A DNA stretch of 64,000 nt, from positions 167,928 through 231,927 of the forward strand of contig VMGF01000002.1 in NCBI GenBank assembly GCA_007376445.1. The letters are read 5' to 3'. Shown piece after piece: positions 1 to 57,943 of the stretch; position 1 is the stretch's first letter, and each line of letters opens with the position of its first letter. A program made the translations under genes and the position numbers. This DNA is from Parcubacteria group bacterium Gr01-1014_3. Its GTDB lineage: Bacteria; Patescibacteriota; Minisyncoccia; UBA6257; WO2-44-18. A model generated the notes under the pieces. It ran no database searches, was not told the origin of the DNA, and was given only the letters and a program-made list of their open reading frames with translations.

Positions 1-639
1 TTCGAACTTAGAAAACGTCGGACCATTCTCCAGGGTAGAGAAATCTACCGCCGTGCCGAGCTGATGCTCGGAATAACCCTGATCGGCGGAGAATTGATTG
101 GAAGTCCCGGCGCCATAAGTCACCGAATAGCCGGATTTTACCGAAGCCTGCTCATAAAACGATCGGTAGGCGGATAAGATCAGTAAATTCATTCCCTCAG
201 CCTTCGCCGCTTCGAGCAGGCTGCCTAGACGGCCCGAAACTCCCGAGTGGATCAGCTGAGTCCGATTCTTTTCATATAGATATTGCGGATCGAGGCTGGA
301 AAGCTGGGCCGGGGCATAGTTTTCGCTCAAAAAATAAACCTTGGAATATTTCCGCAACAACTCCGGATCGGTGGCGCTCCACTTTTGAAGATTCCCCACG
401 ATGCTAGAGAGTTCGCTGATCTTTACCTCAAAGGCGCCGGTCTTGCTCCGCTCGGTATTTAAGGCCTGGAGCAGATTGTTGTTCTCCTCCCCCGCTTTGA
501 CGAGCGACTGCTCAAGATCGGTGATCTTAGCGCCACGAGCGGTATTCTCTTCTGAGGTTTGCCAGTAGCTATATCCGCCATAACCAAGCAATCCCGCTCC
601 GCCGATGATCAATAAAATTTTGGTTAAATTGAGCTTCAT
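1..639 (-). CDS. D-Ala-D-Ala carboxypeptidase, VanY/M15 family (5' part; continues left of window)
   Basis: Translation of the minus strand from the ATG at 637-639 gives MKLNLTKILLIIGG (membrane anchor) and later ...GYSEHQLGTAVDF, the M15 zinc-binding motif. Not in the ORF track because it is truncated. Confidence 0.65.
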   Translation of the reverse strand, partial: MKLNLTKILLIIGGAGLLGYGGYSYWQTSEENTARGAKITDLEQSLVKAGEENNNLLQALNTERSKTGAFEVKISELSSIVGNLQKWSATDPELLRKYSKVYFLSENYAPAQLSSLDPQYLYEKNRTQLIHSGVSGRLGSLLEAAKAEGMNLLILSAYRSFYEQASVKSGYSVTYGAGTSNQFSADQGYSEHQLGTAVDFSTLENGPTFSKFE

Positions 640-743
640 CCCGTTAGAGATTTTGAAAAATAATTTTATAATATTCGCCGACATTAAAACAATTCATTTT
701 CCCTCGCTATGATTTTGCCGAAGTCGACATTATCTCTAACGGG
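640..743. repeat. CCCGTTAGA inverted-repeat element, copy 1 (CCCGTTAGAGAT ... ATCTCTAACGGG, AT-rich interior)
   Basis: Perfect 12-bp terminal inverted repeat. The right end abuts the ATG of the VanY-like gene on the minus strand (TCTAACGGG|ATG). Confidence 0.7.
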
Positions 744-827
744 ACTTCACTGATTAATTTTAACATGAATTATACCGCCCGATTTTCTTATGGGCTAATT
801 CGTGCGAATTAGCCCATAAGACTAAAT

Positions 828-3163: not shown

Positions 3164-4461
3164 GCGGCTGAATCACCAGCTACATAACCGGTCGTCCAAC
3201 AGAGTTGAAGCGAGTAGCCGCCCGAGGGCCGATCTACATTTAATACGTCGCCAACGAGATAAAGCCATGGGATTAAGCGGGACTGCATTGTTTTGAAATT
3301 CACCTCTTCGAGCGCCACACCCCCGGACGAAACAATCGCTTTATTGGCCCCGAGTAAACCGGAAACATTGAGCGGAACCGCTTTCAGGAGCGCGACTATT
3401 TTCTTTCGAGATTCGGCGCTGACGCTGTGATTGGCCGTCTCCCCGCTGATCTCGGCAATCTCCAAAAGCGCGGACACTAGCGCGGCGGGGATCAGTTTGT
3501 TTAAAACATTTTTCAGCTTTTTATTGCTCTCGCCTATTAAAAGTTCCTGGAGTTTTTTGCGAAGCGAACCAAGATCGGTCTTTGGAAAAAGATCGAGCTC
3601 GATAACTACCTCGCCATATTTTAAAAGTTCGCCAATCTCTTTGCTTATATTCAAGACCGTCGGGCCGCTGATGCCAAAGTGCGTAAAGAGAAGTTTGCCA
3701 TTCACGCTGATCTGTTTTTGCCGGTTTTGTCCTCCAGAGGCGGATCCGCCCCAGGCGGAAAAAATCGTGAGCTTGATGTCTTTTAACGTAACGCCGCCAA
3801 GTTTTTTGGCCCACGCGTCTGAAAGTGCAATCGGAACAAGAGCGAAATCGTTGTCGACGATTGTATGCCCTAGTTTTTTAAGCCATTTGAATCCTTCGCC
3901 GGTCGAGCCGGTCTCCGGACGGGATGTGCCGCCAGTAGCCAGAACGCACGACTTGGTGATAATTTCCCCGCCCACATCGCTAAGCGAAGTGTGGCGGGCA
4001 GGTTTTCCGCCTTTTACTTTGATAATAATATTTTTTGTATCCGGATCGACTGAAAGCCCGGCAACCTCAACGCCCGTCTGAACTTTCACGCCACCCTCTT
4101 TCATATACTCAACCAGCACATCCCAGACGGACTTCGCGCTATCCGATACCGGGAAAATTCTACCCTCATTTTCTTCTTTGGTGGCCATGCCTCTTTTGTT
4201 AAAAAAATCTAGCGCTTCTGTAACTCCAAACTGGGAAAAAGCGGAAAAAAGAAACTGGTCATTGCCTTTGTATTTTTCAACCATCAGACGAACCGCCGGT
4301 TTATTGTTGGTCACATTACACCGCCCACCGCCGGTAATAAGCAGTTTTTTGCCCAAACCAGGATTCTTTTCAAGTAATAAAACAGAACGGCCTTTGCTTG
4401 CCGCTCTACCAGCCGCCATCATCCCAGCCGGCCCTCCGCCGATAACTACGACGTCATACAT
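3160..4461 (-). CDS. HI0933/YhiN-family FAD flavoprotein
   Basis: VVVIGGGPAGMMAA and GGGRCNVTN motifs. Carries the in-frame palindromic element (FSAWGGSASGGQ). Confidence 0.7.
   Translation of the reverse strand: MYDVVVIGGGPAGMMAAGRAASKGRSVLLLEKNPGLGKKLLITGGGRCNVTNNKPAVRLMVEKYKGNDQFLFSAFSQFGVTEALDFFNKRGMATKEENEGRIFPVSDSAKSVWDVLVEYMKEGGVKVQTGVEVAGLSVDPDTKNIIIKVKGGKPARHTSLSDVGGEIITKSCVLATGGTSRPETGSTGEGFKWLKKLGHTIVDNDFALVPIALSDAWAKKLGGVTLKDIKLTIFSAWGGSASGGQNRQKQISVNGKLLFTHFGISGPTVLNISKEIGELLKYGEVVIELDLFPKTDLGSLRKKLQELLIGESNKKLKNVLNKLIPAALVSALLEIAEISGETANHSVSAESRKKIVALLKAVPLNVSGLLGANKAIVSSGGVALEEVNFKTMQSRLIPWLYLVGDVLNVDRPSGGYSLQLCWTTGYVAGDSAA
3730..3762 (-). repeat. in-frame double-hairpin palindromic mini-element, copy 1
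   Basis: Plus strand TCCTCCagaGGCGGATCCGCCccaGGCGGAAAA; sense strand of host gene TTT TCC GCC tgg GGC GGA TCC GCC tct GGA GGA. Confidence 0.8.
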
Positions 4462-4928
4462 TAAGACTTTAATCCGGCGTCCTTCAGGATTTTTATTAAC
4501 TGAGGATCCCAGCTACGATCGATCTTACGGAAATGCTTCCATTCATAATAATCGCAATGCTTACTATCCAACTCAGGGCCTTTCCAGGGTTTTATTGGCT
4601 TCATTAAAAACGCGAAGTCGATATTTTGCAGAGGTTTTACGCCAAATGGGCCTTCTGGGAAGCGCAGATCGTAGACTCCGATCAATCGTACGACCTTGGC
4701 GTCGATCGACATCTCCTCTTTAGTTTTCCTTACCGCCGCCGCTTCAAGAGATTCCCCTTTTTTCATGCGGCCTCCAGGAATCCACCACCCATCTTTTACT
4801 GGCTGGTTCTTGCGCTTTATGACCAAAAAACCGTCGCTGGTTTCAATCAACAGATCGACGGTTACAATTGGCATCTCTGCCAATATCTTTTTATATACGT
4901 TAAGCGGAATGAAGCTTTTCTTCGCCAT
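4461..4928 (-). CDS. NUDIX hydrolase
   Basis: Nudix box GGRMKKGESLEAAAVRKTKEEMSI. Confidence 0.75.
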   Translation of the reverse strand: MAKKSFIPLNVYKKILAEMPIVTVDLLIETSDGFLVIKRKNQPVKDGWWIPGGRMKKGESLEAAAVRKTKEEMSIDAKVVRLIGVYDLRFPEGPFGVKPLQNIDFAFLMKPIKPWKGPELDSKHCDYYEWKHFRKIDRSWDPQLIKILKDAGLKS

Positions 4929-6186
4929 TTTTAGTAATTATATGCGGATACGGCATCGGGAAAAAGAGCTTGCCGCCCTGCTCCAGATACGGCCGCTCGC
5001 GCTTGATCAATTCATCTTTAAAGAACCAGATCAACACCAACATCGCGCTGGGCTTTAATTCTCTGGCGCGTTCTTCAGAAACTAATTCAATATCGGTGCC
5101 TAAAGTTTTCAAACCGACTTTCTCCGGATTCCGCTCGCTCAAATACGGAATCATCTTTTTATCTATGCCGAAAAACTGCAACAAAACATTGCCCTTGGTG
5201 GAAGCGCCCAAACCGATTACCATTCCTCCTTTTTCTTTTTCCGCTTTAATGAAATCAAGCGTCGTCTTTTTCAGAGCGTCGATCTTGCGGGAAAATTCCC
5301 GGTAAGTTTCCGCGTCATATAATCGCATCTGCTTTTCTTTTTCATAAATCTCGGCAAGAGCTGCTGAAATTGGCCGAGGATTATTTTTATGGGTGACAAA
5401 AATTCTCAAACTGCCCCCGTTAACGGTGTTTAAAGAGGCGTCAAAAATATACAGATCATGACGATTCATTAAATTTTCCAAAACCTGCAAGGAATAATAC
5501 AAAAGATGTTCGTGGCAGATATCATAAAAATTCAATGTTTCCAGCGTAGTCGGCAAATGGCTTAGCTGAACACACCACACCCCATCAGGCGCTAAAACGG
5601 ACTTAATCTCGGAAACAAACGCATTGGGATCGTCGAGATCGTAGAACATAGCCACTGAGCTGATCGAGCGGAACTTCGCGCCGCCGCTCGCATTGAATAC
5701 TTTTGGTCCGGAAAAATAATCCTTGATGATAGTAATCGACTTATCTAATCCGCTGATGTCAATATTTTGCGCCGGATCAATGCCGCGCCTGATCGTATCG
5801 GTCGGAAAATAGCTCAACATCGTGCCGTCATTGCAGCCGATATCCAGAACGTGATCCCCCGGATTCAAAGTGATCTTTTGCGAAATCTCTTTAACGATGT
5901 CTTGTAGGGCCTCGCGCATCATTGGATTCGTGCCGGAACGATAAAAATAGCTGCGGTACATCAGATCACGATCTACAGTTTCTTTCAGCTGAACCAGGCC
6001 GCAGGCGGATTCATTTTTACTCCGATCACACAAAACCAGCGTAAGCGGGATCCGGATCTTGGAAAGTTCTTCCTTAGAATTATCCGCCACGAATGAAGAG
6101 GCCAGATATTGCTCGCCTAACCCGATAACCTCGGTGAGATCCGGATTTCCGCAAATACGGCACTTTTGTACTGTAGAATAATACAT
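4900..6186 (-). CDS. SAM-dependent (sugar) C-methyltransferase with N-terminal zinc-ribbon
   Basis: N-terminal CRICGN...CDR...C zinc ribbon; LDIGCNDG SAM motif I; C-methyltransferase-like C-terminal domain. Confidence 0.55.
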   Translation of the reverse strand: MYYSTVQKCRICGNPDLTEVIGLGEQYLASSFVADNSKEELSKIRIPLTLVLCDRSKNESACGLVQLKETVDRDLMYRSYFYRSGTNPMMREALQDIVKEISQKITLNPGDHVLDIGCNDGTMLSYFPTDTIRRGIDPAQNIDISGLDKSITIIKDYFSGPKVFNASGGAKFRSISSVAMFYDLDDPNAFVSEIKSVLAPDGVWCVQLSHLPTTLETLNFYDICHEHLLYYSLQVLENLMNRHDLYIFDASLNTVNGGSLRIFVTHKNNPRPISAALAEIYEKEKQMRLYDAETYREFSRKIDALKKTTLDFIKAEKEKGGMVIGLGASTKGNVLLQFFGIDKKMIPYLSERNPEKVGLKTLGTDIELVSEERARELKPSAMLVLIWFFKDELIKRERPYLEQGGKLFFPMPYPHIITKNGEEKLHSA

Positions 6187-6855
6187 TTATTTTTTAGTAA
6201 AACGCTCTTTCAGCATCAGCATTAAAATTTCCCAGCCGGTTTTAAATGGCGACATTTTTCGCACACCGCCGATGCGCTCCGGTTCATCTGCCGCGATCTC
6301 TGCCACGCGCAATCCCCGCTTGATGAATTTGATCGGCATTTGAATGGACCAGGACAATCCCTTGGCATCCATATTCAGATCTTTGAAAACCGATCTCCGG
6401 TATCCCCGAAAACCAACCAATACATCCGAATACGATGACCAAAAAAGAAGATTGACCATTTTTGTAAACATCCAATTACCCTTTGATGTTAAAAAGTCAT
6501 CATCATAATTCACGGCTGGTGGCTTATACCGCGAAGCAATGACAAAATCGTAACCCTCATTCAACTTATTTACCACATCAGAAATCTTTTCTGGAAGGGA
6601 ATTGCCGTCCGCCGGAAATTCGATCACGAAATCTCCCGTGGCCAGTTCATAACCCTCCTGCATGGCATTTCCATAGCCCTTGCCGGACTGACGATGAACC
6701 CGGTAGCCGTTGGCGCGGCAAAACTCAACGGTCCCATCCGTAGATCCCCCGTCAACGACTATCAGCTCGTCCACCCATTCTTTTTTAATTTTTGGCAGCA
6801 CCGCCCGGACCGCCTCAATCTCGTTCAGTGTTGGCGCGATTAATGTGACTTTCAT
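6187..6855 (-). CDS. family 2 glycosyltransferase (DPM synthase-like)
   Basis: LIVVDGGSTDGT and DxD-type motifs; about 220 aa GT2 catalytic domain. Confidence 0.75.
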   Translation of the reverse strand: MKVTLIAPTLNEIEAVRAVLPKIKKEWVDELIVVDGGSTDGTVEFCRANGYRVHRQSGKGYGNAMQEGYELATGDFVIEFPADGNSLPEKISDVVNKLNEGYDFVIASRYKPPAVNYDDDFLTSKGNWMFTKMVNLLFWSSYSDVLVGFRGYRRSVFKDLNMDAKGLSWSIQMPIKFIKRGLRVAEIAADEPERIGGVRKMSPFKTGWEILMLMLKERFTKK

Positions 6856-9781: not shown

Positions 9782-9868
9782 CGTTTGAGATTAACACGCG
9801 AGGAATTCATTGGGCAAATTCCGCTTAATACGATTAGGCCTATTTGGGTCTAAATGCCGTAGATTGAT

Positions 9869-9936
9869 CCCGTTAGAAACCGCGCCCGCGCTTAGCGCGC
9901 CCCGGAGGGGCCTATGGGCGGGCTGTTTCTAACGGG
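9869..9936. repeat. CCCGTTAGA inverted-repeat element, copy 2 (68 bp, GC-rich nested-hairpin core)
   Basis: CCCGTTAGAAAC ... GTTTCTAACGGG with internal GCCCGC/GCGGGC and GCCCCggaGGGGC stems. Confidence 0.75.
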
Positions 9937-9937
9937 A

Positions 9938-9966
9938 TTGACATATATAATAGAATATGGTATAAT
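9938..9966 (+). promoter_or_regulatory. consensus sigma70 promoter fused to the element (TTGACA-17-TATAAT)
   Basis: TTGACA at 9938-9943, exact 17-nt spacer, TATAAT at 9961-9966. ATG of the next gene at 9976. Confidence 0.6.
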
Positions 9967-11177: not shown

Positions 11178-11281
11178 CTTGATTCCTTTCTTAGAACACC
11201 TCCAATTTAGCAAAGGATTTTAAGTCGCGCAAGTTTGAAATTTTTAAACTTTGAGTTATAATACAAAGCAGTTCTTAATAT

Positions 11282-11572
11282 TCCCCGGTAGCTCAGCGGT
11301 AGAGCAGCTCGCTGTGAAATAGCGCAGCCTCCTAGAGTAATCTAGGTTGAATAACGAGGTGAACTCGGTGAAACCCCTTTGGGGCAATACCGAGCCAAGC
11401 CCAGATGAAAATCTGGGAAGGTGTAGAGACTATCCCGAAAGGGAGTACTCCAGCGAAAGCTGGCGGAAGCGCCTCGATCCGACAAAGGTCGGATATGATA
11501 TAGTCCACCCCTATTAGTAATAGTAGGACAAGTGTAACGAGAAGGTCCCAGGTTCGATCCCTGGCCGGGGAG
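11282..11572 (+). tRNA. tRNA interrupted by a roughly 219-nt group I intron in the anticodon loop; mature anticodon most likely GUU (Asn), alternatively UGU (Thr)
   Basis: 5' half TCCCCGG-TA-GCTC-AGCGGTA-GAGC-A-GCTCG-CUGU; 3' half UAA-CGAGA-AGGTC-CCAGG-TTCGATC-CCTGG-CCGGGGA-G. P1 pairs exon GCUGU with intron GCAGC through a U.G wobble. Confidence 0.7.
11316..11534 (+). ncRNA. group I intron (self-splicing type) within the tRNA
   Basis: Conserved core elements GACUAUC (R, about 11428) and GAUAUAGUCC (S, about 11498); terminal G; 5' exon ends in U. Confidence 0.65.
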
Positions 11573-11617
11573 CAAATAAAAAAGCCAAGTATTTCAACTT
11601 GGCTAAAAATTTCACGA

Positions 11618-12505: not shown

Positions 12506-12808
12506 TTAGTCGCGCATATTTACTTCATAAGTCTCTCGGTATGATATCACATAGCGTACCGGGATCAATACGACCATACGGCCCGCAGCGCCTTTGGGTA
12601 TGTAGGTTACCCTCAGACAATCTTCGTTCGTAGCCAAAGCTTTGATCGGCTGTTCATCGATCTCGGCGCTCGGGGCTAATTGATAGGCTGGATTCAAAGA
12701 TTCGACAACCAAATCTTCTGGAAGAATGTGCCCGTCCAGCAACCAATCGGAGCCACTCCGCTCAAGATACCAATTGAAAAGGATTACGACCCTGCGAAAA
12801 GACCACAT
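12506..12808 (-). CDS. hypothetical small protein
   Basis: ORF preceded by the family-3 leader that supplies GGGAGG 6 nt upstream of the ATG. Confidence 0.45.
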   Translation of the reverse strand: MWSFRRVVILFNWYLERSGSDWLLDGHILPEDLVVESLNPAYQLAPSAEIDEQPIKALATNEDCLRVTYIPKGAAGRMVVLIPVRYVISYRETYEVNMRD

Positions 12809-12814
12809 ATTTAG

Positions 12815-12882
12815 CCTCCCTAAATCAAATCCCTGATTTGATCGGGCGACCTAACTCACCACATAGTGAGTTAGGTTTAGCC
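12815..12882 (-). promoter_or_regulatory. conserved structured 5' leader (family 3, copy A)
   Basis: mRNA sense: GGCUAAACC-[ACCUAACUCAC..GUGAGUUAGGU hairpin]-CGCCCG-[AUCAAAU cagggAUUUGAU hairpin]-UUAGGGAGG-N6-AUG. Confidence 0.6.
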
Positions 12883-12949
12883 TCAAATCACTGGCCCAAC
12901 TATACCACTATATATAGAAGACGTCCAGGCTTGGTTCTAAGCCGCCCTA

Positions 12950-12978
12950 TTGACATTTAGCATTCTATCTATTATAAT
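12950..12978 (+). promoter_or_regulatory. consensus sigma70 promoter (TTGACA-17-TATAAT)
   Basis: Exact -35 and -10 hexamers with a 17-nt spacer, upstream of the surface-protein gene. Confidence 0.55.
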
Positions 12979-13006
12979 GTGCCTATCAAATAAAAAGGAA
13001 CGAAGT

Positions 13007-13106
13007 CCCGTTAGAACTGGCCAATACGGCTATTTCTAGGGAGGCATCGTAAAAAAAATACACATAAAATATGAAGATAATTAAAAATATCACCAGTTCT
13101 AACGGG
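13007..13106. repeat. CCCGTTAGA inverted-repeat element, copy 3 (CCCGTTAGAAC ... GTTCTAACGGG)
   Basis: 11-bp perfect terminal inverted repeat around an AT-rich interior that contains GGGAGG. The right end abuts the ATG at 13107. Confidence 0.65.
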
Positions 13107-14612
13107 ATGAAAAAACTCATCGTTTTCGGCCTTTTAATGGGCCTGATCGCAGTCAATTTAATACAAGTTAACGTCGTGGAAGCGGCCAGCGAGCCGTGGT
13201 GCTATTTCATCTTCCAGAAGTGCAATGACAACGATGATTCCAGCGCGCCTAGCTCCGCTCCGGCGACTAATAATCCTCCGGTTTGGACTAGTGGGCAGAC
13301 TTCTTATAGCGCCAAAACTGGCGAGCTTTTACAGTTCACGGTAAACGCCATGGATCCGGAAGGAGCCACGCTCATCTATCGGGCTTCTTTTATTCCAAAC
13401 AGCGCGAACTTTAACGAAAACACTCATGTCTTTTCTTGGACTCCAAGTGACAACCAGCTTGGTAATTATTCCATTGAATTCAGCGCTTATGACGGCACTA
13501 ACCGCATTTACCAGAACATTAACGTCCAGGTCATTAAGGGCGTTCAGAATCCGGGCAACAGCCGCCCAGTTTGGACCACGATTCCAAGTCAAACCGCTTA
13601 TGTCGGCCAGACTTTGCAATTCTCTGTCTATGCCAACGACAACGACGGCGACACTGTAAACTATTCCGCTTTGAATTTACCGAGCGGCTCTAACTTCCAA
13701 GAATCCAACCGGACTTTCACTTGGAATCCGAGCTCCGGCCAGGTTGGTTCTCACATCGTCAGCTTCCGCGCTTCTGATGGCACCAACTATGCCGATATGG
13801 GCGTGACTATCACTGTCATCAATGGCACTCCGGTCGTGGGAAATAATAAACCGGTTTTAACCGGCTTCAACCCGCCGATCCGCGCCAATGTCGGTAAGCT
13901 CTATATTTATGATGTTAATTCTACTGATCCAGATGGCGACCCGATCTTCTATATTTTGAATTCCGGTCCGGCCGGTCTGACGATGAATTCCGTCAACGGC
14001 GTTATCAGCTGGGTTCCGTCCGCGAATCAGTTGAACTTCAATCAGGTCAACTTCTCCGTCTCTGACGGCAAGACTCCGACTACTGTCAGCTTCTTCATCT
14101 TCGTGGAAGCCGCGACCGCTCCGGCTCCGGCTGAACCGATCATTGTTGAGCCAAGCGAAGCTCGCGTAGTTATCAGCGATTTGAGCATGCGCGCTGAGGA
14201 TGGCGTGGTCATTGTTTCTTGGAATACCAATATTCCGACCCGCGCTCGCGTGATCTTCGGTGATACTTCCGAAGCGACTAAGACCCGCAACTTTACCTAT
14301 GACGACGCGACTCCGGAAATTCTCGCTATGAGCCGGGACCATGAAGTGAAGCTTGAAGATTTGGAAATGGAAAAGGTTTATTACCTCCGCGCGGTCGCCA
14401 AGACCGACGGCCAGACCGTCACCAGCCGCGAAGTCACCTTTGTGCAACTTCCTGGCCAGGGTGGTCTCCAGTTCTTTGGAGCCGCTTCCCTCTTGTCCAC
14501 CTTGGGCAACTTGCTGACGGAACCGATCGTACTCTTACTCGCGATTGTCGGCATGTTGATCTTTATGTATCTCCAGAATAAGAAAATCGCGAAGCTGAAA
14601 TCACCGTTATAA
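13107..14612 (+). CDS. cell-surface protein with four Ig-like (He_PIG/cadherin-like) repeats and a C-terminal TM anchor
   Basis: Signal peptide MKKLIVFGLLMGLIAV. Four roughly 90-aa repeats (PVWT..G.T..F.V.A.D.DGD). C-terminal hydrophobic helix. An alternative start exists at 13071. Confidence 0.6.
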   Translation: MKKLIVFGLLMGLIAVNLIQVNVVEAASEPWCYFIFQKCNDNDDSSAPSSAPATNNPPVWTSGQTSYSAKTGELLQFTVNAMDPEGATLIYRASFIPNSANFNENTHVFSWTPSDNQLGNYSIEFSAYDGTNRIYQNINVQVIKGVQNPGNSRPVWTTIPSQTAYVGQTLQFSVYANDNDGDTVNYSALNLPSGSNFQESNRTFTWNPSSGQVGSHIVSFRASDGTNYADMGVTITVINGTPVVGNNKPVLTGFNPPIRANVGKLYIYDVNSTDPDGDPIFYILNSGPAGLTMNSVNGVISWVPSANQLNFNQVNFSVSDGKTPTTVSFFIFVEAATAPAPAEPIIVEPSEARVVISDLSMRAEDGVVIVSWNTNIPTRARVIFGDTSEATKTRNFTYDDATPEILAMSRDHEVKLEDLEMEKVYYLRAVAKTDGQTVTSREVTFVQLPGQGGLQFFGAASLLSTLGNLLTEPIVLLLAIVGMLIFMYLQNKKIAKLKSPL

Positions 14613-42120: not shown

Positions 42121-43398
42121 TTATAGTGTAAATGAAGCCGTTAAAGCTTCAAGCAACGACCGGTCCTGCTCGTTGATGTCTTCAGTCGGTGGCACCTCGA
42201 CTTTGAACGGATTCACATAACTCCCGAATTTATGCATTTCGTAATGAAGGTGCGGCCCCGTGGAAAGTCCGGTCGAGCCAACATAGCCAACCACCTGGCC
42301 CTGCTTCACATGCGCCCCTTTTCTGATGCCTTTTGGTAGGGCTGAAAAATGGCCGTAGCGGGTGGTATAGGTGTCGTTGTGGCGGACAGTCACCGAGAGC
42401 CCATAGTAGCCATTCCAACCGGCCTGCGTGACCGTGCCATCGCCCACCGAGACGGCCGGAGTGCCGGTGTTAGCCACGTAATCTATGCCACGATGCGGAG
42501 ATACCTTTTTGGTGATCGGATTGAGTCTGGCGCCGGTATAGCCGGAGCTGATGTATTTATATTGAAGCGGAGATTTTAAGAAAATTTTCTGAAGCGATTT
42601 CCCTTTTTCGTCATAATATCCAATCTTAGTATTCGGGCCTTCAAATAAATAACCGTTGAAAGTTTCGCCATCATTAATAAACTGGGCTGCTAAGATCCGG
42701 CCGGGCATTGCATACTCGCCATCCAGATACCGATCTTCATGAATTACCTTGAAAGAATCACCGCTCCGGATATCGGCTGCAAAATCCACCTGCCAGGCAA
42801 AGACTTCGGCGACCGCGAGCGCCAGGCGCTGATCAAAGCCTGAGCCGACCATGGTCTCATAAAGTGAAGTCTCGATCGTGCCGCTGGCTTCGCTGATCTT
42901 TACCTCATACGGAATATCGGCGACTTCCACCAACCAGCCCACCGCGGCAGGCAAGCCTGCCTGCCGGTAGGCATGGCTCGGTGGCGAGACCAGACCTTCT
43001 TCGGCTTCTAAAACCTGCGCTGTTAAATTGGCGCCATCCGGTGAAGAAGTCGCTACCCAGATGGTCAACTGTCTTTCGGTATCAATTTTATAAATCAACT
43101 TCTCAAAGATCGCGCCGGTGTGATCATATTGGAAAATTGCCTCGCGACCGGCGATGATGGTCGCGAAATCATAAACCGGTTTAGCCGCCGCCAGAATTTC
43201 AGAAGCCGTGCCAGTGGAAAAACCCTGACCGGTCATAAAGCTGATAAAGGTGGCACCGGCCGGGACTTTAGAGCGGATAATTACCTTGGACGGTTCAGGT
43301 TTGATAAAAAGTTTTTCTATCCCGCCGGTCAGGCCAGAAACGACCGCGAGAATCCCGAAAATGGCCAATCCCGCCGGAATTATTAGCTTTCTTGACAT
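42121..43398 (-). CDS. M23-family (LytM-like) metallopeptidase
   Basis: HRGIDY...GSTGLSTGPHLHYE M23 motifs; N-terminal TM. Confidence 0.75.
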   Translation of the reverse strand: MSRKLIIPAGLAIFGILAVVSGLTGGIEKLFIKPEPSKVIIRSKVPAGATFISFMTGQGFSTGTASEILAAAKPVYDFATIIAGREAIFQYDHTGAIFEKLIYKIDTERQLTIWVATSSPDGANLTAQVLEAEEGLVSPPSHAYRQAGLPAAVGWLVEVADIPYEVKISEASGTIETSLYETMVGSGFDQRLALAVAEVFAWQVDFAADIRSGDSFKVIHEDRYLDGEYAMPGRILAAQFINDGETFNGYLFEGPNTKIGYYDEKGKSLQKIFLKSPLQYKYISSGYTGARLNPITKKVSPHRGIDYVANTGTPAVSVGDGTVTQAGWNGYYGLSVTVRHNDTYTTRYGHFSALPKGIRKGAHVKQGQVVGYVGSTGLSTGPHLHYEMHKFGSYVNPFKVEVPPTEDINEQDRSLLEALTASFTL

Positions 43399-43519
43399 TG
43401 AGAAAATAATATGCTATAATTTAACCAGTATCTTTTATATGTGTGGAGGCGCAAGCCGACGCCAAAGGCGGGCAAGCCTTCACACCAAAGCTCGGCAGAT
43501 ATGCTGAATTTTGGTGTGA

Positions 43520-57725: not shown

Positions 57726-57845
57726 ACAACCTCCTTGCCTCCGCCAGTTGGCGGATGGCGGGCGAATACTGTAAAGAAACTTTGAATATATTAATAAAAT
57801 ACACCGATAAAGTCAACCGCTCGATTAATTTCTCATGATATTGAT

Positions 57846-57913
57846 CCCGTTAGAAGTCGCGCCCGCGCTTTGCGCGCCCCAAAGGGGCCTATGGGCGGGC
57901 TACTTCTAACGGG
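57846..57913. repeat. CCCGTTAGA inverted-repeat element, copy 4 (68 bp, about 90% identical to copy 2 with compensatory stem changes)
   Basis: CCCGTTAGAAGT ... ACTTCTAACGGG; inner GCCCCaaaGGGGC hairpin. Confidence 0.75.
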
Positions 57914-57914
57914 A

Positions 57915-57943
57915 TTGACAATAGGCTTAATGTATGCTATAAT
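57915..57943 (+). promoter_or_regulatory. consensus sigma70 promoter fused to the element (TTGACA-17-TATAAT)
   Basis: Same offset from the element as at 9938. AAGGAGA RBS and ATG at 57993. Confidence 0.6.

Follow-up and report, generated by a model that had tools for sequence, protein, structure and literature searches.

The long hairpin that ends at the start codon of an immunoglobulin (Ig)-repeat surface-protein gene in Parcubacteria group bacterium Gr01-1014_3 is probably one copy of a widespread family of small mobile palindromes, which resembles miniature inverted-repeat transposable elements (MITEs) and through which ribosomes may translate before reaching the gene. The window analysed here is a stretch of 64,000 nucleotides of contig VMGF01000002.1 of this organism, and positions without a locus name are given in its coordinates. 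It holds four copies of the element, A to D, the one at the Ig-repeat gene being copy B (Table 1). Our verdict, drawn from sequence comparisons, is that of a MITE-like family whose insertion geometry appears to regenerate start codons and whose copies show statistical signs of being translated.

A widespread family of palindromic elements

Members of the family begin with (T/C)CCCGTTAGA and end with TCTAACGGG(A/G). Scanning one genome per species with the pattern CCGTTAGAA-N41-101-TTCTAACGG yielded at least 119 stretches, and a metagenome scan for the element yielded at least 120 further ones. The genome sample (n = 132 copies) and the metagenome sample (n = 116 copies) used throughout this work were both taken among the matches listed, and together they amount to about 250 copies. 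Most carriers in the genome scan were Patescibacteria, also known as the candidate phyla radiation (CPR), including Saccharibacteria, Nomura-, Kerfeld-, Doudna-, Kaiser-, Yanofsky-, Komeili-, Moran- and Nealsonbacteria; some were Omnitrophota, Planctomycetota and Deltaproteobacteria. Copies were 60-131 nt long, with constant arms and very diverse interiors of about 40-110 nt. A GGGR motif was found near the 5' arm only (21 copies, vs none with the mirror image, across the family). In shuffles of the window the two-arm pattern was expected 0.00 times. We found no description of the element in the searchable literature, and the family is apparently undescribed so far.

Some copies were nested or in tandem, in certain cases with variant arms (AGAG/CTCT), as in loci L010 (2597-2756), L038 (7675-7894), L066 (4621-4788) and L079 (180-383), and some genomes carried them densely, for example three copies at positions 3824-6485 of the 8-kb locus L048, that is, in less than 3 kb. 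In bacterium DX4.bin27 (L021), inverted repeats of about 330 bp (2046-2369 and 4832-5155), each with one copy of the element, flank a 2.6-kb segment encoding a secreted protein of 686 aa, an arrangement that could represent a composite or invertible unit. A composite element with its own transposase was discarded for this locus, as the encoded product is the secreted protein and not a transposase.

Evidence for transposition

When the element was bounded as (T/C)CCCG...CGGG(A/G), an exact 4-nt repeat was found to flank 82 of the 132 genome copies, against 8.4 in shuffled pairings and with no excess at other lengths; the flanks follow the consensus R-TNNA-Y. The metagenome sample replicated this result (71 of 116 copies). 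IMG/VR viral contigs (L245-L261) served as a control for the search pattern: they gave 17 stretches, mostly without canonical YCCCG ends, and none of the 19 hits in them carried the flanking repeat, which argues that the duplication is not an artefact of the pattern used. The family seems to be essentially absent from this viral collection. According to these data, the element would insert into R-TNNA-Y sites, duplicating 4 nt (5 nt in copy D). Four of the six features by which MITEs are defined fit the element, namely its short length without a transposase gene, its terminal inverted repeats, its target duplications and the dispersal of its copies.

Probable insertion at start codons

The terminal base of the element forms the start codon of an open reading frame (ORF) of at least 60 codons in 59 of the 132 genome copies and in 42 of the 116 metagenome copies (36-45%). 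Among copies with a clean duplication at coding-neutral sites, 37 of 60 lay on starts, when 10.4% were expected (p = 8e-22); the null comprised all TNNA sites, in reconstructed pre-insertion sequences, that do not disrupt coding. A simple geometry would account for this excess. With A|TGNA as the target, the upstream copy of the duplication would retain the old ATG, and the terminal A or G of the element would join the downstream TG to rebuild an ATG or GTG directly before the intact gene. That the stem ends exactly at the start codon would therefore be a consequence of the insertion geometry, i.e., of a duplication of 4-5 nt beginning with TG plus the terminal A of the element. The upstream copy of the start codon was retained in 43 of the 57 start-codon copies of the genome sample and in 34 of 42 in the metagenome sample. 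Elements with C...G ends (L022, L024, L051, L083) have ATG in the upstream copy and GTG as the downstream start, implying that the element supplies the initial base of the functional start codon.

The genes downstream encode DnaA, TopA, AtpD, L1, TyrRS, AhcY, Pgk, GlyRS and LysRS, and also surface proteins. In alignments to the DnaA, TopA, AtpD, L1, AhcY, GlyRS and LysRS profiles the junction ORFs begin matching at position 1-3 and, judged by these alignments, they are the native full-length genes. As these genes are unrelated housekeeping functions, the element does not seem to be tied to a regulon. Where two genes overlap at ATGA, the insertion preserves both the TGA stop of the upstream gene and the downstream ATG. 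In addition, a strong -10 box precedes 15 of 43 upstream start copies by 4-11 nt, vs 16% for ORF starts generally, a spacing that is consistent with the geometry of leaderless genes. The symmetric terminal stems of the start-codon copies measured 13-16 bp in 54 of 57 cases, and 12, 17 and 18 bp in the other three.

Signs of translation through the element

The frame that opens at the upstream start is fixed by the insertion geometry and reads ATG-NAY-CCC-GTT-AGA (M-x-P-V-R). Depending on the length of the element, it terminates at TAA in the 3' arm (TTC TAA CGGG ATG), terminates at a TGA that overlaps the gene start as ATGA, or continues in frame with the gene. Of 79 copies, 35 had an interior free of stops in this frame, compared with 22 of 158 control frames (the other two frames), and the difference held when only unrelated singleton interiors were counted (25/57 vs 17/114, p = 6e-5). 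The element has an intrinsic orientation, recognisable from the GGGR motif close to the 5' arm and from an asymmetric bulge beside the 3' arm. At start codons this orientation matched that of the gene in 29 copies and opposed it in one (17 vs 1 in the metagenome sample), and elsewhere it was random (12 vs 12). The stem itself lacked an RNA-specific signature, with 14 G-U vs 10 A-C pairs and a sense-antisense difference of -0.6 kcal/mol (p = 0.43).

The excess of stop-free upstream frames, together with the orientation bias, led us to propose translation through the hairpin followed by a restart. Ribosomes would initiate at the upstream start copy, in many cases where a leaderless mRNA begins, and would translate the short M-x-P-V-R frame through the palindrome, melting the hairpin. 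Termination would follow either at the TAA of the 3' arm, which precedes the ATG of the gene by 4 nt, or at the ATGA overlap, and the ribosomes would restart. In our own reading the palindrome as such would be a DNA feature, the ends of a transposon, and at start codons only those copies would have survived whose interior allows a ribosome to travel from the original start codon across the hairpin as far as the rebuilt one.

The same arrangement might instead be dealt with by removal or skipping at the RNA level, the hairpin being excised and its ends rejoined, or the ribosome hopping between the two ATG-NNN copies as in phage T4 gene 60. Such a process would make sense of the identical repeats of 4-6 nt, start codon included, that flank a strong hairpin, and of the tolerance of essential genes to the insert. 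We regard it as very improbable: the excess of stop-free upstream frames and the stops positioned at the 3' arm both argue that the interior is read, 14 of the 57 start-codon copies of the genome sample, copy B among them, have no upstream start repeat and yet their genes are intact, and no ribozyme or intron model matches the element.

More tentatively, and with rather more doubt than belief on our part, the CCCGTTAGA element may be a transposon that seeks start codons, or is retained at them, and that has turned into a self-contained translational restart cassette. Its duplicated start codon would keep the native promoter or leaderless 5' end acting on a short frame through its own hairpin, and the stops in the 3' arm or in the ATGA overlap would hand the ribosomes to the regenerated start codon. 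If so, the cassette could colonise essential genes at their starts, in CPR bacteria as well as in several further phyla, and the hosts could gain a uniform level of control, gated by the hairpin, for leaderless genes.

Several observations weigh against a MITE-like element that is translated through. The arms are constant across phyla and the interiors differ widely, which is unusual for a MITE spreading from master copies. Copy B has no clean duplication (CGAAG vs TGAAA), and in about half of the copies at start codons the upstream frame soon meets a stop. For a decoy hairpin on the 5' side, which would free the 3' arm, there was a non-significant trend (p = 0.06-0.12), and the restart model is argued from sequence statistics. 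In about 1.8 Mb of fetched loci, a search for two arms separated by 0.6-3.5 kb and showing either matching extensions or a duplication detected no autonomous element or transposase bounded by the arms, and no pair of filled and empty sites was present among these loci. With neither a partner insertion sequence (IS) nor an empty site found, we infer the mobility of the element from its duplications and its dispersal.

The copy at the Ig-repeat gene

The Ig-repeat gene (He_PIG/Big_9) is preceded by a perfect TTGACA-17-TATAAT, located at 12950-12978 as a preliminary description of this DNA had indicated, and transcription would start at about 12985. The same description proposed an 11-bp closing stem in the leader. 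CCCGTTAGAAC is indeed found at 13007-13017 and GTTCTAACGGG at 13096-13106, and the long-range stem is real, although the perfect repeat extends to 15 bp and takes in the A of ATG 13107. The stem would lie in the 5' untranslated region if transcription begins at the 12950 promoter. As RNA, copy B folds with -29.9 kcal/mol (z = -5.9). Structure prediction for the leader, taken from about 12985, pairs -15 to +1 of ATG 13107 and places ATG 13071 unpaired inside a 72-nt A/U-rich loop. As the preliminary description had it, the element does bear on the choice between these two ATGs, both of which are present. The internal GGGAGG, reported near 13039, lies at 13039-13044; it was rejected as a Shine-Dalgarno site, being 26 nt from the nearest ATG and corresponding to the partial internal copy of the 3' arm (TTCTA-GGGA) found family-wide. 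The 5' arm is able to pair with this internal TTCTAGGGAGG, forming a local hairpin at 13000-13050 (-21.4 kcal/mol, z = -3.9).

Table 1. Features of copy B and of the other element copies and promoters, in window coordinates
Feature	Position	Strand	Remarks
-35 hexamer TTGACA	12950-12955	+	Likely promoter of the Ig-repeat gene, by consensus match only
-10 hexamer TATAAT	12973-12978	+	17-nt spacer from the -35 hexamer
CGAAG, putative decayed upstream copy of the target duplication	13001-13005	+	Compare TGAAA downstream at 13108-13112
Copy B, T-CCCGTTAGAA...TTCTAACGGG-A, 102 nt	13006-13107	+	Same family as about 250 copies elsewhere
5' arm of copy B, TCCCGTTAGAACTGG	13006-13020	+	Perfect 15-bp inverted repeat
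Internal TTCTAGGGAGG of copy B	13034-13044	+	Partial copy of the 3' arm
In-frame ATG	13071-13073	+	Adds MKIIKNITSSNG to the signal peptide; start in the public annotation (513 aa)
3' arm of copy B, CCAGTTCTAACGGGA	13093-13107	+	TAA at 13100-13102; final base is the A of the start codon
Ig-repeat (He_PIG/Big_9) surface-protein gene, from the ancestral start	13107-14612	+	Pfam scan
Copy A, 70 nt	9868-9937	+	G+C-rich interior; TTGA flanks at 9864-9867 and 9938-9941; abuts perfect promoter 9938-9966
Copy C, 70 nt	57845-57914	+	By eye closely similar to copy A; TTGA flanks at 57841-57844 and 57915-57918; abuts perfect promoter 57915-57943
Copy D, 106 nt, variant arms CCCGTTAGAG/CTCTAACGGG	639-744	-	On a start codon (complement of 637-639)
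Perfect N17 promoters	9938-9966, 12950-12978, 43392-43420, 57915-57943		Three of the four adjoin element copies
Predicted empty site, copy A			GCCGTAGATTGACATATATAATAG
Predicted empty site, copy B			AAAAAGGAAYGAARAAACTCATCG
Predicted empty site, copy C			TCTCATGATATTGACAATAGGC
Predicted empty site, copy D		-	AATTAATCAGTGAAGCTCAATTTAACC

Six orthologues of the Ig-repeat protein (P0002-P0005, P0007 and P0008; 42-47% identity) start with MKK or MNK exactly at the position of 13107, and a seventh, P0006, has six extra residues followed by MKK. These N-termini identify 13107 as the ancestral start. An exact look-up of the protein gave no match outside the same genome. The flanks of copy B read A-CGAAG-T on the left and A-TGAAA downstream, with three of the five duplication bases identical, and the codon at 13000-13002, the putative former upstream start, is now ACG. 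Comparison with copy D and with the rule of the family suggests that CGAAG is a decayed target duplication. The simplest history would be a 5-nt TGAAR duplication and then a T-to-C substitution abolishing the upstream start, and no upstream frame of copy B now extends to its 3' arm.

Because the upstream start has apparently decayed to ACG, the 3' arm of copy B is probably opened from ATG 13071, and entry at this codon is also what the predicted fold would favour, since it pairs the region from -15 to +1 of 13107 and leaves 13071 in the loop. Ribosomes starting at 13071 would open the 3' arm, reading it as ...ITSSNG, and would yield a pre-protein with a cleavable signal peptide 12 residues longer. 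Alternatively, 13107 could be used directly while the 5' arm sits in the local hairpin at 13000-13050. Between the two entry sites in this allele we lean, by a small margin and by judgement, not by calculation, towards 13071. An in-frame ATG within the element was not a feature of the family (8/43 and 3/14).

The preliminary description took the stem for a control of translation or stability of the surface protein, and a cis-regulatory RNA leader dedicated to the Ig-repeat gene, for example a thermometer or a stem responsive to a ligand or protein, could in principle hide the start codon of this gene. The stem is real and very stable, and it buries the 15 nt before ATG 13107 plus its A; the alternative 5' hairpin could release the start codon, and at start codons the orientation of the element is fixed relative to the gene. 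However, copies are also found at housekeeping genes, upstream of -35 boxes and after stop codons, which argues against a device dedicated to this gene, and copies A and C of the window, upstream of -35 boxes, lie outside the sense transcript. Neither the flanking target duplications nor the lack of G-U vs A-C asymmetry and of a sense/antisense energy difference would be expected of such a leader. Rfam 15 gave no match at gathering scores, the best hit at a permissive E-value (25.5 bits, vs a gathering score of 51.5) being at chance level. Finally, the element was absent from three of the four orthologous loci examined (L122-L124). Taken together, this evidence makes a dedicated leader unlikely, and any effect of copy B on the level of the Ig-repeat protein would be incidental to the insertion of a mobile palindrome, not the work of a purpose-built switch.

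The fourth orthologous locus (L121, Patescibacteria, GCA_038058795.1) carries a 132-nt copy with TTGA flanks at a -35 box (2331-2462). The orthologous loci are too distant to be aligned, their proteins sharing 42-47% identity, and the L121 copy occupies a different position. As this copy is unrelated to copy B, two lineages would have gained copies independently in the same intergenic region.

Upstream of the promoter of the Ig-repeat gene, between it and the divergent gene at 12506-12808 (minus strand), the region 12802-12893 contains a hairpin plus direct repeats: a perfect 11-bp hairpin, ACCTAACTCAC/GTGAGTTAGGT, at 12849-12876, and a pair of direct repeats of about 35 nt at 12802-12835 and 12858-12893.

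Other copies and promoters in the window

The gene under copy D encodes a membrane or secreted protein on the minus strand and runs off the left end of the window. This copy shows a perfect 5-nt duplication, TGAAG, at 634-638 and 745-749 on the minus strand, with flanks G-TGAAG-T and A-TGAAG, and it shares its 5' half with copy B. An internal ORF of 17 codons (GAGGGAAAATG...) terminates at the TAA of the 3' arm. Copy D may meet the problem of the buried start in another way, through this GAGGGAAAATG frame and its stop in the 3' arm. Copies A and C both have a G+C-rich interior, and where their stems differ the positions remain complementary.

The window holds four perfect TTGACA-N16-18-TATAAT promoters, when 0.01 were expected, and the proximity of three of them to element copies raises a further possibility, that of a DNA-level palindrome or cruciform bound by a widespread protein at promoters and transcription starts, and not the end of a transposon. 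The arms are conserved across phyla in sequence and not merely in pairing, their complementarity is strand-symmetric, and many start-codon copies stand at +1 of leaderless genes (15/43 vs 16%), all of which such a site would accommodate. Nonetheless, the family as a whole shows a weak association with near-consensus promoters (9/85 vs 5.7% expected, p = 0.06), and a protein-binding site would leave several features unexplained: the 4-nt direct repeats, variable in sequence, on either side of the element, the terminal base that regenerates ATG or GTG, the surplus of open frames, and an orientation bias that is confined to start codons. We therefore consider this explanation improbable, somewhat more so than an RNA leader, and maintain that copies A to D belong to a MITE-like family.

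Elsewhere in the window, a group I intron (Rfam RF00028, 57.8 bits) was detected at 11227-11527 on the plus strand, with flanks at about 11284-11575, in an apparent tRNA gene. The 5' half of the interrupted tRNA-like gene is CCCCGGTAGCTCAGCGGTAGAGCAGCTCGCT and the 3' half GGTCCCAGGTTCGATCCCTGGCCGGGGAGCA; ARAGORN made no call for this interrupted gene. At 11235-11262 there is a promoter-like TTGAAA-16-TATAAT.

Significance

Our results define a widespread repeat family without an Rfam model and resolve a recurrent problem of annotation in CPR genomes, where starts beside palindromes are ambiguous: for the Ig-repeat gene the public record gives 13071 and homology 13107. If the restart model is true, a mobile element can sit on the starts of essential genes without inactivating them, its ends and stops being shaped to preserve translation. 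This would bear on leaderless and Shine-Dalgarno-poor translation in CPR bacteria, and would illustrate how mobile DNA survives in very compact genomes.

Comparison with known systems

Bacterial MITEs are non-coding elements of small size that carry terminal inverted repeats and target duplications, occur as dispersed copies and form a long stem-loop as RNA (PMC3184786). The element described here has all these traits in common with families such as Correia/NEMIS of Neisseria, RUP, Nezha and ERIC, and such MITEs are often co-transcribed with a neighbouring gene. To our knowledge, its arm sequence is unrelated to those of these four families. It differs from known MITEs in its 4-nt TNNA duplication (not TA), in the combination of diverse interiors with constant arms, in its excess at start codons with regeneration of the codon and in having no known partner IS.

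IS1380 elements generate duplications of 4-5 bp and have CC ends. The piggyBac elements duplicate the 4 bp TTAA, sometimes TAAA, TCAA or TATG, and have terminal repeats beginning with CCC, and IS1380 transposases serve as their prokaryotic outgroup (PMC10813416). The present element shows traits of this type, namely a 4-5-bp duplication and CCC...GGG ends, a resemblance that we offer as a lead and not as membership. No transposase was found near any copy in the fetched loci, and the arms were matched to no known IS.

Two other kinds of repeat were considered and rejected. Integron attC sites have the order 5'-RYYYAAC ... GTTRRRY-3', and the order found here, 5'-GTTAGAA ... TTCTAAC-3', is the reverse. 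REP/REPIN sequences do not apply either, as a target duplication is present and the element has no GTAG head.

The T4 gene 38/25 split ribosome-binding sites, termination-reinitiation coupling and the bypass in T4 gene 60 are cases in which a hairpin stands between a translation signal and a start, and in them expression depends on folding or on an upstream ribosome. Those systems are single evolved loci, whereas the present arrangement appears to have been recreated repeatedly by insertion. The Neisseria REP2 repeat is located directly upstream of genes and supplies a translational start site (PMC3184786). In contrast to the present element, which gives only the first base of the start codon, REP2 has its own promoter and ribosome-binding site and no terminal inverted repeats.

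The nearest functional parallel is provided by the MIRUs of Mycobacterium (Supply et al. 1997). In the account of them given in PMC3184786, these are intergenic repeats of 40-100 nt within operons, with tetranucleotide direct repeats at filled sites and small ORFs that extend at their ends over the stop and start codons of the genes on either side, a layout that would suit translational coupling. MIRUs are G+C-rich, with imperfect inverted repeats, and belong to a single genus; the present element, on the other hand, has a perfect terminal palindrome of 13-16 bp, supplies the first base of the start codon and is found at many leaderless targets in CPR bacteria.

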